The translations under genes were made by a program, and so were the position numbers. The notes under the pieces are model-generated. The model was not told the DNA's origin. It saw only the letters and a program-made list of their open reading frames with translations, and did no database searches. A stretch of 64,000 bases of DNA from a phage, in the sequence record PZ452584.1. One strand, written 5' to 3'. Shown here in pieces: positions 46,009 to 50,580 of the stretch. Positions within the stretch are counted from its first letter, which is position 1, and every line of letters starts with the position of its first letter.

Positions 46009-46869
46009 TTATACCGCCATTTTTCCTTTCAAGACACCGTAGGACTGATAATCTTTGAGAACGAAATCTTTAGGCCTGAGTTTAAGAACATATTCCAATT
46101 GTTCTTTAGTAGAAAGATAACGGAATTTATAAGGCAATCCGCCTATTACCAGTTCACAAAGCTCTTTAGGTTCACGACGCAAAATTTCTTTGCATTGTTC
46201 TACATGATTCATATAGATATGAGTATTACCACCAGAAAATATCAAATCTCCTGGAGTAAGATTACACATCTTAGCTATAATATGAACTAACGCAGCATAT
46301 GATGCAATATTAAATGGAAGGCCGAGAAAAACATCTACTGATCGTTGATACCACTGCAAATCCAAATAGCCATTACGCACATTAAACTGATAGAACATAT
46401 GACAAGGCGGTAATGCCATCTGCTTGATTTCAGCTGGATTCCATGCTGAAACGATTTGACGTCGATCAGTTGGTAATTTTTTAATACGATCAATAACTTC
46501 TACAATTTGGTCTACACCGCCAAAATCACGCCACTGTTTTCCATAAATTGGACCAAGTTCACCGCTATGGTATCCTAAATCTTTTGCTTGATTTTCGTAA
46601 TTTTCATCCCAGACTGTTTTGCCTTGGATTAACGAATCATGCTGAATTAATCGTAAATCATTGACATTTGTGCTTCCTGATAAAAACCATATTAACTCAG
46701 CAATGCAAGCTTTCCAAGCGAGCTTTTTAGTTGTTACCGCAGGAAAACCTTTAGTTAAATCCCAACGCAATTTAGTACCGAACAAAGCAATTGTTCCTGT
46801 GCCTGTTCGGTCATCGGTTTCATAACCATTTTCAAAAATGTCTTTAATTAAATCTTGGTATTGTTTCAT
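46009..46869 (-). CDS. td: Thymidylate synthase, uninterrupted
   Basis: 286 aa continuous; active-site LPPCH present; no intron. Confidence 0.95.
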   Translation of the reverse strand: MKQYQDLIKDIFENGYETDDRTGTGTIALFGTKLRWDLTKGFPAVTTKKLAWKACIAELIWFLSGSTNVNDLRLIQHDSLIQGKTVWDENYENQAKDLGYHSGELGPIYGKQWRDFGGVDQIVEVIDRIKKLPTDRRQIVSAWNPAEIKQMALPPCHMFYQFNVRNGYLDLQWYQRSVDVFLGLPFNIASYAALVHIIAKMCNLTPGDLIFSGGNTHIYMNHVEQCKEILRREPKELCELVIGGLPYKFRYLSTKEQLEYVLKLRPKDFVLKDYQSYGVLKGKMAV

Positions 46870-46914: not shown

Positions 46915-47274
46915 TCAATACGGTTTAGCATCAAATTTTCTCTCAATTTCAGGTGTGAAATATAATTCTTTACCGCGTTTGGAAAAGCGACCAATAATAT
47001 GATAATTATTCTCATCAAACGTAATATTACCAATATCCATAGCTTTCAACCAAATATCGATATTTCTATCCAGCTTTATGTCAAAATTCCAATACGGAGA
47101 ACTATTACCAAAAATACTACAAGCGGATTCAGTGAAACAGCTACTATAAATCTTGTCTTTAGGAACTACTAATTGATAGACACCTTTAATAAACTGAGGA
47201 CCTTGCCATTTTGGCTGTTTCGCGTCTTTTTCTAATAGAATAGGATAATAATTAAAATTCATATTTTCCGCCAC
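46915..47274 (-). CDS. Hypothetical protein inserted between frd and td
   Basis: 119 aa ORF; not expected between frd and td in T4. Confidence 0.6.
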   Translation of the reverse strand: MAENMNFNYYPILLEKDAKQPKWQGPQFIKGVYQLVVPKDKIYSSCFTESACSIFGNSSPYWNFDIKLDRNIDIWLKAMDIGNITFDENNYHIIGRFSKRGKELYFTPEIERKFDAKPY

Positions 47275-47282
47275 GCGTTATT

Positions 47283-47867
<585 letters not shown>

Positions 47868-48110
47868 TCAAAACCCCCTTTCAATAAACCATTCAGTGGC
47901 TTTATTAGCATCAAAGAATAATTCTTCATATGTCTTTTCTTTGTTTTCAAAAACTGTCACACAAACACGTTGACATTCTCCACAGTATTCTTCTGACATA
48001 CTTAAAGCGTCAGAAAACATTTCTTTAAATTCATTTAAATCAGGATTATGCAATGCGTTAAAAATTGCATAATCAAATTCATCATTCATAAATTCAAATA
48101 CAAAAATCAT
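47868..48110 (-). CDS. Hypothetical protein
   Basis: 80 aa. Confidence 0.55.
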   Translation of the reverse strand: MIFVFEFMNDEFDYAIFNALHNPDLNEFKEMFSDALSMSEEYCGECQRVCVTVFENKEKTYEELFFDANKATEWFIERGF

Positions 48111-48120
48111 ATTGTTTTCC

Positions 48121-48363
48121 TTAAACAGACTTTTTCACAATTTTCCAATCAGCTTTAAACTGCTCGACGTCAGAGTGATGAATCCAGAAACCAGATGAGC
48201 TACCATCTTCATAAAGAGGACAACCATCGCACTCATCTTTCCAACCCATCGCGCATAAAGTTTCTTCAGCTTTTTCCAGAGCTTCTGGATTGTTACCCTG
48301 GATTGTAAAGTACCATTTGCCTTTAACTTCTGAATCTTTGATGCTCTCACGTTGTAATTTCAT
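48121..48363 (-). CDS. Hypothetical protein
   Basis: 80 aa; overlapping alternative-frame ORF 48135..48350 disregarded. Confidence 0.55.
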   Translation of the reverse strand: MKLQRESIKDSEVKGKWYFTIQGNNPEALEKAEETLCAMGWKDECDGCPLYEDGSSSGFWIHHSDVEQFKADWKIVKKSV

Positions 48364-48440
48364 TTTATTCTCCAGTGTTTTAGTTGTTAACTCAGTATGG
48401 GACCATTATGTCATAGCCCCATTTGGTTGTACACTACTTT

Positions 48441-48812
48441 TTACTGAATATTAAAAGTTGCTTTAATCAGTGCAATGACTTCTGCCGCATTTTTATGATT
48501 TACCTGCACATGAATGGTTTGGGTATCAATATCAGGAGCATCGCCATCAACTTCCAGGAAGTGACAGAATTCCCATTCAGCGAGTTCAAAGTACTCGTCA
48601 GCATTATCATAAACAGACTTCAGGATGGTGCCATCTTTCATTTCAACTTTTTCGACAAAATAATCACCGTCGATATAACACATGTCCAGGACTTTAAAGG
48701 AACTGCCATGTTGTTCCATAATCTTAATCATGCGCGAATTGTTATCAGGACTACCAGCGATGAATTGTTTTTTGGCAGCAGGGTCTAATACGTAAAATTT
48801 ACCAATTTCCAT
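48441..48812 (-). CDS. Hypothetical protein, paralogue of 48871..49251
   Basis: Start at ATG 48812 (GAGGA SD); early promoter at 48842-48871. Confidence 0.6.
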   Translation of the reverse strand: MEIGKFYVLDPAAKKQFIAGSPDNNSRMIKIMEQHGSSFKVLDMCYIDGDYFVEKVEMKDGTILKSVYDNADEYFELAEWEFCHFLEVDGDAPDIDTQTIHVQVNHKNAAEVIALIKATFNIQ

Positions 48813-48841
48813 TTTATTTTCCTCATGTAGTTGATAGGGTA

Positions 48842-48871
48842 ATAGTATCACACTACTACCCTACTGTAAAC
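48842..48871 (-). promoter_or_regulatory. Early promoter candidate (GTTTACA-17-TACTAT)
   Basis: Consensus-like elements 25 nt upstream of ORF start 48812. Confidence 0.55.
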
Positions 48872-49251
48872 TACTTTTTGAAAGTTTTTCGCAAAAGTTC
48901 AATGATTTCATCTACATTGTTTTCATCTACAATGCAGTGAATTTTTGTTACGCCAGAAACCTTGTCTTTGACTTCAACTTCTTCAGAAGTCGGTTCTTTA
49001 TACTCACGAAAACAATGAAATTCGTCTTCGCAAATTTCTAAAAGTCTATCTTTGAGGTAAAAATGCTTTCCATTTGCGCATTCAATGTGTTTTACTGCTT
49101 TATATCCATTAGCGACGGAAACTTCTTTAACTTCAAACCATCCGCCATTATCTCGAATCGCTTTAACTATTGATGAATTAGAACGTGGGCTATAATTAAT
49201 AAATGTATCAATAAGTCTTGGAACAAGCTCATACTTTTTACCGGTATACAT
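48871..49251 (-). CDS. Hypothetical protein, paralogue of 48441..48812
   Basis: 126 aa; shared pattern with neighbour. Confidence 0.6.
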   Translation of the reverse strand: MYTGKKYELVPRLIDTFINYSPRSNSSIVKAIRDNGGWFEVKEVSVANGYKAVKHIECANGKHFYLKDRLLEICEDEFHCFREYKEPTSEEVEVKDKVSGVTKIHCIVDENNVDEIIELLRKTFKK

Positions 49252-49296
49252 TACGTTTTCCTCATTTTAATAGGGGCTGTAATAGCCCCTCGATAA

Positions 49297-49527
49297 TTAT
49301 TGTTCAATCAGTCCCATGTAAAATTCTGCGTCTTCAGAATCCATGCCATCACAATATTCATTAGCCATAAAGCGGGTAAGGTCTTCAAGAGGACCTTCAA
49401 TGACAATAGAAAAATTGCAATAATTGGGATCATCATGAATACTTGTGATACTAAGTTCAGGATAACGATTACGAATAATTTCTTCGATATATTCAAAATC
49501 AACGATGTCAATATCAACTTTAGCCAT
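49297..49527 (-). CDS. Hypothetical acidic protein
   Basis: Start at MAKVDIDIV with GAGGA SD; early promoter 49571-49600. Confidence 0.55.
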
Positions 49528-49570
49528 ATTATTTTCCTCTTTAATCATCAGCAGTATTGCCGATAGTTGT

Positions 49571-49600
49571 ATAGTACCATGGAAGAACAGGGATGTAAAC
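49571..49600 (-). promoter_or_regulatory. Early promoter candidate (GTTTACA-17-TACTAT)
   Basis: Consensus-like elements upstream of ORF 49297..49527. Confidence 0.55.
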
Positions 49601-49633
49601 CGTTTTGTGAAAAAATTTTAAAATAAAAAAAGG

Positions 49634-49651
49634 GACCTCTAGGGTCCCCGA
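49634..49651 (-). terminator. Intrinsic terminator after gene 32
   Basis: GGGACC-CTAGA-GGTCCC followed by U-run on minus strand; coordinates approximate. Confidence 0.6.
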
Positions 49652-49671: not shown

Positions 49672-50580
49672 TTAAAGGTCATTCAAAAGGTCATCCAGGT
49701 CCGTGTCATCAGCACTAGATGAACTGCCAGAGCTTGAGCTCATAAAATCATCTTCAGTTTTTGTATTGAAGTCATCAACATTGAATGCATCCAAATCATC
49801 AGCAACTTTATCAGCTTTCTTAGCAGCAGTTGCAGCGGCACCGCCCATCACAGCAGTTCCCATAACTTGACCGAATTTAGTATTCAGTTCTTCAAACGAT
49901 TTGAATTTATCTTTAGAAGTCATTTCAGAAAGGTCAACCATTTGTTCGAACAGTTCTTTCTGGAAAGATTCATCGTCAATGTTTGGAATCGCAGATTGAT
50001 TCAGGAATTTAGATTCGTCGTAGTTACTAAATCCGGAAACTTGTTTAACTTTCAGTACAAAGTTAGCACCTTCCCACGGACAAGTTACATCAACCGGAGT
50101 TTCACCCATTTCAACATCAACTGCAATCATTGCGTTGATTTTATCCCAGATTTTCTTACCGAAACGGTATTTAAATACTTTACCTTCATTTTCTGGAGCA
50201 GCTGGGTCTTTTACTACAAGAATGTTAGCCCAGTAAGAAGTTTTACGTTTAACAAGACCGTACTCTTTATTGTCAGTGTTGTACAAATCATTTTTACTGA
50301 TGTACTGACATACTGGGCAAGAATCGTAATCACCATGGGTAGATGAACATGTTTCAATATACCATTTACCATTTTTCTTGAAACCGTGATTTACAAGAAT
50401 TGCGAATGGTGCTTGTTCATCATTTTTAGACGGAAGAAAACGAATTACTGCTTGACCGTTACCCGCATTATCGAGTTTCAGTTTCCACTCGCCTTTATCT
50501 TCAGAAGAAAAACCACCTTTATTTCCAGCCAGTTTAGCCATTTGTGCAGCGAGTTCAGCAGTAGATTTACGTTTAAACAT
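49672..50580 (-). CDS. 32: Single-stranded DNA-binding protein gp32
   Basis: 302 aa; acidic Ser-rich C-terminus; characteristic AU-rich leader. Confidence 0.97.

Follow-up and report, generated by a model that had tools for sequence, protein, structure and literature searches.

Early accessory genes between frd and gene 32 of a T4-like phage: a mosaic of promoter-led cassettes probably shuffled through repeated regulatory modules

T4-type phages harbor mobile regulatory cassettes termed promoter-early stem-loop elements (PeSLs; Arbiol et al. 2010, PMC2839356; Comeau et al. 2014, PMC4122927). Crossovers occur between their -10 sequence and the Shine–Dalgarno (SD) site/ATG, and such elements can excise mini-circles bearing open reading frames (ORFs) (PMC2839356, PMC4122927). 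The architecture of T4 early promoters, with UP, -35, TGn and -10 elements, has also been described (PMC2988021), and one product of the interval between frd and gene 32, T4 Frd.2, was grouped with GoF and MotB.1 as early proteins with an LSm-like fold (Kim et al. 2025, PMC12152347). Here, the frd–gene 32 interval was analyzed in a 64-kb stretch of phage DNA (record PZ452584.1, below called the window), a segment of a Tequatrovirus (T4-like) genome that shares ~96% identity with, for example, vB_EcoM_SP1 and ESh24 across 24 kb. In T4, only frd.1, frd.2 and frd.3 are annotated in this interval, as an earlier reading made from the sequence alone (the sequence-only reading) had stated. In the window, it is occupied by five small minus-strand ORFs (ORF1, frd.1, frd.2b, frd.2 and frd.3) with neighbors on the same strand. 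This island is probably a hyperplastic accessory-gene region of the Tequatrovirus type, composed of three self-contained early-expression cassettes that have been shuffled via repeated modules.

The T4 frd.1–frd.2–frd.3 region (NC_000866, 145762-146802) resembles the window in position, strand, the gene 32 terminator, the two promoters P1 and P2 and the hairpin between frd.3 and frd.2, and its three genes are orthologous to those of the same names in the window. The window differs from T4 by the additional ORF1 (phrog_3183) and frd.2b, the extra genes behind the expansion that the sequence-only reading had noticed, and by a third promoter, P3. Its frd.2 carries another allele of the N-terminal domain (49% identity in amino acids, aa) and its frd.1 belongs to the SP18 type, whereas P2 of T4 precedes an unannotated hydrophobic mini-ORF of 22 codons. 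The genes and promoters of the island, in the direction of transcription, are listed below; dN/dS denotes the ratio of nonsynonymous to synonymous substitution rates and N17 a spacer of 17 nucleotides (nt).

49571-49600, minus strand: candidate early promoter P1, GTTTACA-N17-TACTAT with TGn, upstream of frd.3 and frd.2.
49297-49527, minus strand: frd.3, 76 aa; Pfam Phage_FRD3, 129.1 bits against a cut-off of 28.1; dN/dS 0.0-0.35.
48871-49251, minus strand: frd.2, 126 aa; Pfam FRD2; dN/dS 0.25-0.36; "window/PP01"-type N-terminal barrel allele on a conserved C-terminal module.
48842-48871, minus strand: candidate early promoter P2, GTTTACA-N17-TACTAT with TGn, within the hairpin module 48827-48874.
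48441-48812, minus strand: frd.2b, 123 aa, with its ATG after GAGGAAAA; Pfam FRD2; the extra paralogue.
48405-48434, minus strand: candidate early-type promoter P3, GTGTACA-N17-CATAAT with TGn, within the module 48381-48436 upstream of frd.1.
48121-48363, minus strand: frd.1, 80 aa; DUF5417, 122.7 bits against a threshold of 23.9; GGAG in the SD site; dN/dS 0.05-0.35.
47868-48110, minus strand: ORF1, 80 aa; phrog_3183, no Pfam match; dN/dS 0.05-0.19 against close relatives.

All five ORFs, which had been read from the sequence at these positions, possessed a ribosome-binding site (GAGG, GGAG or AAGGA) 6-9 nt 5' of the ATG, and all five families were already present in Pfam or PHROGs. The dN/dS values against orthologues in other phages were about 0.05-0.5, in all cases below 1; the comparison of frd.1 with SP18 was set aside, as its dS of 0.24 seemed too high for 97% DNA identity. 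The SD sites, the family matches and the dN/dS values together indicate that the five ORFs are real genes. Four of them have the extents proposed previously. For frd.3, the proposed start at 49548 (49297-49548, 83 aa) should most likely be replaced by 49527, since the ATG at 49527, directly 3' of AGAGGAAAATAAT, is preceded by the SD sequence AGAGGA and the resulting product of 76 aa is close in length to T4 Frd.3 (75 aa). ORF1 is packed tightly between frd.1 and frd; it has no counterpart in T4, yet it is common among other Tequatroviruses. The SD site of frd.1 (48370-48373, minus strand) was the sole GGAG among the five ORFs, the other four having GAGG or AAGGA. GGAG is the motif cleaved in early mRNAs by the T4 endoribonuclease RegB.

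The exact GTTTACA-N17-TACTAT sequence was found only twice in the 64 kb, both times on the coding strand, with 0.01 occurrences expected by chance, and three of the six matches of a looser early-promoter pattern on this strand of the window fell within the 1.7-kb island. The T4 early promoter class was defined by a GTTTAC-type -35, 17-nt spacing, TGn, a -10 of the form TAnnAT and an A/T-rich UP region. P1 and P2 matched it fully, whereas P3 deviated in both hexamers (GTGTACA and CATAAT) but kept the 17-nt spacing, TGn and an A/T-rich region upstream. An A/T-rich stretch runs from the gene 32 terminator into P1, and the -35 of P2 is overlapped by the stop codon of frd.2. P1 and P2 are kept in T4, P1 also in PP01, ESH35 and the related locus L017, and in T4 and PP01 the P2 promoter precedes other cargo. 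The two promoters of the sequence-only reading were thus recovered, while its division of the island into two sub-blocks has to be revised, because the early-type promoter P3 precedes frd.1. Judged by promoter placement, three blocks can be proposed, with P1 driving frd.3 and frd.2, P2 driving frd.2b, and P3 driving frd.1 and ORF1 and reading on into frd. Early expression of the T4 orthologues is supported by two published observations: the T4 frd.3 RNA ranks among the most abundant nicotinamide adenine dinucleotide (NAD)-capped, i.e., primary, T4 transcripts, and the frd.2 RNA has served as a control in reverse transcription quantitative PCR at 5 min post infection.

The content and order of genes between gene 32 and frd varied among all Tevenvirinae groups examined, in agreement with the earlier description of this interval as hyperplastic. 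The cassette order was permuted among T4, PP01, the window, SP18, IME341, dhaeg and JS98-like phages, as the following four examples illustrate.

T4: frd.3 > frd.2 > 22-codon mini-ORF > frd.1.
PP01: frd.3 > frd.2 > frd.1 > ORF1.
Window: frd.3 > frd.2 > frd.2b > frd.1 > ORF1.
SP18: frd.2a > frd.2b > Y84 > frd.1 and further genes.

Nearly every cassette was preceded by the same module, consisting of AAAAAGTA-GT(T/G)TACA, a spacer, TGA-TACTAT, a ATCAACTA-type start region and GAGGAAAATAAAATG. The 22-codon ORF of T4 (MFAPYIMAAVMLVCLYLLIKAC; NC_000866 146015-146083, minus strand; L004 3516-3584) has a good GGAG ribosome site and lies directly 3' of P2, i.e., in the slot held by frd.2b in the window. 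In some Tequatroviruses, an extra DUF7247 cassette (110-119 aa), absent from the window, was located between frd.1 and ORF1 (AugustSocin L003 1222-1554; L001 1206-1565; L006 1888-2247). In the guide table of a T4 CRISPRi study, the guides for the ribosome-site/ATG regions of trna.4, 30.8, motB.2, sp and frd.1 cross-match (PMC11879866 supplement), and the translation-start sequence GGAGAATAAAATGAAA is therefore a repeat dispersed across T4 early genes.

The DNA of the island proved to be a mosaic of four segments with different closest relatives, and two pairs of direct repeats were found at its regulatory modules.

Segment 47200-48113 (frd and ORF1): 94-95% identical to Tequatroviruses.
Segment 48138-48443 (frd.1 and P3): 97.4% identical to SP18, P896 and TH41, and 81-85% to other Tequatroviruses.
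Segment 48453-48850 (frd.2b): 93.7% identical to Dhakavirus dhaeg.
Segment 48810-49700 (frd.2 and frd.3): 95.9% identical to AugustSocin.
Direct repeat D3: 48358-48373 (SD-ATG of frd.1) and 48807-48822 (SD-ATG of frd.2b), 16 nt, 88% identical, 449 bp apart.
Direct repeat D4: 48428-48442 (AAAAAGTAGTGTACA, frd.2b stop/-35 of P3) and 48865-48879 (AAAAAGTAGTTTACA, frd.2 stop/-35 of P2), 15 nt, 93% identical, 437 bp apart.

The breakpoints (~48113-48138, ~48443-48453 and ~48810-48850) all coincide with gene ends or promoter modules. The frd.1 allele is of the SP18/Dhakavirus type at the protein level as well, with 90-95% aa identity to this type and 75-78% to other Tequatroviruses. D3 and D4 (consensus AAAAAGTAGT(T/G)TACA for the latter) bracket the frd.2b cassette. 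Relative to PP01, the window contains an indel of 436 bp (48374-48809), with a junction overlap of 13 bp in the BLAST alignment that lies in D3. The same 436-bp piece was missing from most of the 626 phage records matching the region, the best matches listed covering 83-88% of the query.

These data are consistent with the following mechanism. Each cassette would start with an A/T-rich upstream region, GT(T/G)TACA, a 17-nt spacer, TGn and a -10, which together would form a strong sigma70-dependent "T4 early" promoter, followed by a conserved ATCAACTA-type start region, a GAGG or GGAG ribosome site and one to three small ORFs. In the P2 and P3 modules, the two arms of a stable hairpin, formed only by read-through RNA, would consist of the spacer and the -10, so that a single module of ~50 bp would both close one cassette and open the following one. 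The modules recur between the genes as near-repeats of 15-30 nt and could supply the phage recombination system with short homologies, through which, in line with the PeSL model, cassettes may be acquired or lost, change their order and pass from one genus to another. In this way, frd.2b and the frd.1/P3 block may have arrived from Dhakavirus/Gaprivervirus-like phages.

The modules of the window share with PeSLs an A/T-rich region, a sigma70-like promoter, a stem-loop, an SD site and an ATG, clustered in a hyperplastic region, and they lie on either side of an indel that distinguishes close relatives, the PP01 junction being inside the SD-ATG repeat. P1 and P2 (TTTACA-N17-TACTAT) fit the PeSL promoter consensus TTTACW-N17-TAYWAT (PMC4122927), whereas P3 (TGTACA ... 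CATAAT) fails it at one position per hexamer. The PeSL stem-loop is located upstream of the promoter, where it serves as a terminator; P1 fits this arrangement, as the gene 32 terminator lies ~20 nt upstream of it. The terminator and the second stem-loop outside the promoters are as follows (dG, folding free energy).

49625-49649, minus strand: gene 32 intrinsic terminator, GGGGACC-CTAGA-GGTCCC followed by a T-run; dG -12.0, z -4.6; conserved in T4.
49272-49291, minus strand: intercistronic hairpin between frd.3 and frd.2, GAGGGGCT-ATTAC-AGCCCCT, of the GGGG...CCCC type; dG -12.7, z -3.2; no promoter of its own.

The P2 hairpin had a predicted RNA dG of -22.6 kcal/mol (z -6.1 to -6.9), compared with -17.4 for the antisense strand. 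Its inner stem of 14 bp (48834-48864) joins the promoter spacer to the -10 hexamer and the bases 3' of it, and in the outer helix GUAGUU from the stop/-35 region pairs with AACUAC from the conserved start box. The P3 hairpin (inner stem 48397-48422) had a dG of -15.4 to -18.3 kcal/mol (z -3.3 to -3.7), the antisense value being -9.9. Among 19 homologous promoter modules taken from nine phages, 12 had comparable hairpins; these use four different stems (TAGGGTA/TACCCTA, GGCTAT/ATAGCC, GGTCTAT/ATAGACC and ATGGG/CCCAT), and in 10 of the 12 the sense strand was the more stable one, owing to G·U pairs. Because transcripts starting ~7 nt after the -10 lack the 5' arm, the P2 or P3 hairpin could be formed only by read-through transcripts of the upstream cassette, and for this reason the promoter-embedded hairpin may act as a 3'-boundary mark or stabilizer of the upstream message. 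T4 shares the stem of the frd.3–frd.2 hairpin but has another loop. The P3 spacer/hairpin sequence GGGGCTATGACA (48409-48420) and GGGGCTATTACA of the frd.3–frd.2 hairpin (49278-49289) share 11 of 12 nt, and a weak TTTACA-N18-AATTAT match is located at 49293-49322, just upstream of the latter. This promoter-less hairpin may be a decayed cassette boundary.

Several points weigh against the cassette interpretation as a whole. The proposed recombination at the repeats is deduced from the end-points of segments and the activity of the promoters in this phage from their sequence. In PeSLs of the PST/T4 type the stem-loop lies just upstream of the promoter (PMC4122927, legend), whereas the P2 and P3 hairpins span the spacer and the -10 and, having no U-tract, are not classical intrinsic terminators. 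Seven of the 19 related promoter modules, including P1 of the window and of T4, were without a hairpin; single inverted repeats were only modestly unlikely (P 0.0006-0.09), and the hairpin statistics are soft because the module sequences are related and do not constitute independent tests. As for the proteins, T4 frd.2 amber mutants plate normally (PMC12152347), and the CRISPRi-ART result, in which frd.2 was the sole "Fit" T4 gene of unknown function (PMC11879866), was marginal (score 0.83, p 0.027, single guides "Not Fit"; PMC11879866 supplement), frd.1 and frd.3 being "Not Fit" (PMC11879866 supplement). The hhalign comparison of the FRD2 alignment with T4 GoF and MotB.1 was not significant, with E values of 0.04 and 0.07, respectively, and a probability of ~1%, the N-terminal domains being in register.

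The modules that keep a promoter without a hairpin, the absence of a U-tract from all of the hairpins and the shortness of the stems when only Watson–Crick pairs are counted (5-9 bp) could also be explained if the hairpins had no role in RNA. They would then be by-products of promoter constraints or of recombination palindromes, in line with the speculation of the PeSL authors that the stem-loops are protein targets in recombination (PMC2839356), and the cassette boundaries would be set by the promoters and the gene 32 terminator alone. This explanation is possible, though on balance it appears unlikely, as pairing is retained by four different stems at a constant position with respect to the -10, G·U pairs favor the sense strand in most of the hairpins and the z-scores reach -6.9.

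The genes frd.2 and frd.2b, at the center of the cassette arrangement, had been suspected to be paralogous, and this was borne out by a full-length BLASTP alignment (30% identity, 48% positives, E 9e-12) as well as by matches of both products to Pfam FRD2 (PF03197; gathering threshold 29), with 105.7 bits for Frd.2b (residues 27-121) and 114.3 bits for Frd.2 (residues 28-126), and to phrog_622. The patterns on which the suspicion had been based (Y.L.P, SP.NNS, EF.CF and similar C-termini) were approximately right; in the aligned pair they read YVLDP/YELVP, SPDNNS/SPRSNS and EFCHF/EFHCF, with a C-terminal ...IH..V...N...I.L...TF. The structure prediction that the sequence-only reading had suggested was performed with AlphaFold2. 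The alignment-based model of Frd.2b (mean predicted local distance difference test score, pLDDT, of 89.5) consists of an N-terminal strand, two helices, the strands of a small barrel, a low-confidence linker around residues 91-100 and a C-terminal strand-helix. The N-terminal domain is predicted to be an SH3/LSm-like barrel; in the predicted structure, Frd.2b has the five-stranded antiparallel barrel that defines the GoF/MotB.1/Frd.2 fold. A Foldseek search of BFVD with this model returned 56 viral matches at E<=1e-3, FRD2 proteins first and then GoF of VR7 (E 1.7e-5) and T4 MotB.1 (P39415, E 1.4e-4).

Like the members of the GoF/MotB.1/Frd.2 family, which is confined to T4-like phages and in which the GoF–MotB.1–Frd.2 link came from five PSI-BLAST rounds (PMC12152347), Frd.2b is predicted to have an N-terminal five-stranded barrel, a linker and a small C-terminal domain. 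It differs from them in forming a separate subfamily, with 30% identity to Frd.2. Frd.2 and Frd.2b can be regarded as ancient paralogues within this family. The FRD2 family is small: a profile search of 1.84 billion cluster representatives yielded only 45 relatives, mostly of 112-138 aa, and a few of them consist of the N-terminal domain only or of N-terminal domains in tandem. An 85-aa barrel-only FRD2 protein follows gene 32 in a Mosigvirus/Gaprivervirus-like contig (L011 3678-3935), and the FRD2 proteins P0095, P0101 and P0107 (225-254 aa) possess two tandem barrels and a C-terminal module.

The two ends of frd.2 showed different degrees of conservation. Between the window and T4, the first 80 codons were 49% identical in aa and 59% in nt, and the last 28 codons 98% in nt; for the window and GCA_050537045, the corresponding values were 25%, 46% and 99%. 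Tequatrovirus frd.2 genes thus combine a near-identical 3' end with at least three strongly diverged N-terminal alleles, and P2 downstream of frd.2 is also near-identical in T4 and GCA_050537045. The N-terminal barrel therefore appears to be an exchangeable module on a fixed anchor formed by the C-terminal part and the promoter. The codons of the C-terminal ...KTFKK* of frd.2 read AAAACTTTCAAAAAGTAG and double as the A/T-rich upstream region of P2. In ESH35 (L001 2325-2725, record marked UNVERIFIED), frd.2 is split into two coding sequences of 312 and 90 nt by a frameshift or a sequencing error, and the allele type of its N-terminal part is that of GCA_050537045.

The variable N-terminal barrel is probably the target-binding part of the protein. 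As a best guess, Frd.2 and Frd.2b most likely serve as dispensable early proteins that would modulate RNA or transcription of the host or the phage via the barrel. In the family, an effect on mRNA stability was described only for the GoF(D25Y) mutant, and wild-type GoF and MotB.1 show none (PMC12152347). Searches of PDB sequences with all five proteins of the island gave nothing below E 0.2, NCBIfam gave nothing meaningful, and the sole PADLOC match was a chance-level Cas8b for ORF1 (E 0.012, 12.4 bits). The AlphaFold2 model of ORF1, built from nine close homologues, was unreliable (pLDDT 54.6). A RelB-like antitoxin assignment for Frd.3 was rejected: the match reached 18 bits against a cut-off of 27 and spanned residues 3-27 of the 83-aa form, including the improbable N-terminal extension, and neither PDB nor NCBIfam supported it.

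The alleles also invite another explanation, in which the small proteins of the island, especially the Frd.2 family, form an anti-defense or host-takeover arsenal engaged in an arms race. They would neutralize variable host factors such as defense systems, RNA polymerase, RNA chaperones or RNases, and the shuffling would reflect selection for new specificities, a view that can coexist with the cassette mechanism. Support comes from the location of early, dispensable and variable genes beside core genes, from the divergent barrels on an almost invariant 3' end, from the relatives with single or tandem N-terminal domains and from the marginal T4 frd.2 fitness signal. It is nevertheless rather unlikely, since no characterized anti-defense or defense family was matched in PADLOC, NCBIfam or the PDB sequence search, dN/dS was below 1 throughout, and recombination without diversifying selection can also replace alleles.

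More speculatively, two readings may be combined, although it is doubtful that both hold together. According to the first, the island would contain a T-even "promoter-inside-a-hairpin" module, in which the -10 may be the 3' arm of a hairpin specific to the sense strand, so that one element of ~50 bp may close one message, start the next and give homology for exchange. According to the second, the Frd.2 family would consist of modular effectors, in which an SH3/Tudor/LSm-like barrel may be swapped on a fixed C-terminal module, tracking RNA polymerase, an RNA-binding factor or a defense protein. If this were true, frd.2 and frd.2b would be a specificity-diversifying pair.

With regard to the origin of the second FRD2 copy, frd.2b constitutes a separate orthologous clade (65-98% aa identity within it), and its DNA, ~94% identical to that of Dhakavirus dhaeg, is 86-90% identical to the SP18 and JS98/JS10 copies. 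Of 50,697 phage records, no more than 67 contained the gene, nearly all of them ~170-kb genomes of the Dhakavirus/Gaprivervirus type, together with Salmonella phage S16 and coliphage VR7. The only other Tequatrovirus carriers found were ESH35, ECp13, GCA_050537045 (a contig of an E. coli assembly) and SRR33660935 (a Sequence Read Archive assembly), the last two having the five-gene order of the window. The gene has already been annotated as frd.2b in SP18 and as frd.2a in JS98 and JS10. SP18 (GQ981382) and JS98/JS10 carry the same FRD2 paralogue pair in the same interval; in contrast to them, the pair of the window sits in a Tequatrovirus backbone, a rare case. Both FRD2 types coexist in SP18, JS98, dhaeg and IME341, in differing orders. 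Given 30% aa identity and no DNA similarity detectable between frd.2 and frd.2b outside the regulatory repeats, the paralogues must have parted long ago. A recent tandem duplication, by which frd.2b would have been copied from the adjoining frd.2 in this genome and the island would have grown in situ, could account for the adjacency, common orientation, similar length and common Pfam family of the two genes and for the AAAAAGTAGT(T/G)TACA in both 3' flanks, but with such protein divergence, Dhakavirus-like DNA in a clade of its own, both types already together elsewhere and frd.2b missing from most records matching the region, it is extremely improbable and was rejected. Rather, the comparisons indicate that the second copy entered this Tequatrovirus by exchange with Dhakavirus/Gaprivervirus-like phages.

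The genes flanking the island are given below.

49672-50580, minus strand: gene 32.
47283-47864, minus strand: frd.

On the other side of frd, an ORF of 115-119 aa (46915-47274, minus strand) separates it from td, whereas in T4 td and frd overlap without such an ORF. It is 99-100% conserved in PP01, AugustSocin, ESH35 and L017, is annotated in AugustSocin as "putative homing endonuclease", and had no match in Pfam, NCBIfam or PADLOC. The td gene itself (46009-46869, minus strand) is intronless, forming a continuous ORF of 286 aa, and the td group I intron with I-TevI is present in T4 and the close relatives L017 and L018.

Taken as a whole, the island fits known kinds, namely a T4 hyperplastic region, PeSL-type cassettes, catalogued families and an annotated paralogue pair, and is no new class of system. 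What the analysis adds is the third promoter, the repeat-bounded intergeneric mosaic, the hairpin-in-promoter layout and the swapping of N-terminal alleles in frd.2, which presents itself as a mosaic gene with interchangeable N-termini. The natural sets of alleles and paralogues are offered for functional tests of Frd.2, to whose family attention was recently drawn by its LSm-like fold and, separately, by the marginal "Fit" call. For T4-like phages, the island would provide a small, clean and fully mapped case of the trading of early accessory genes across genera via repeated regulatory modules.

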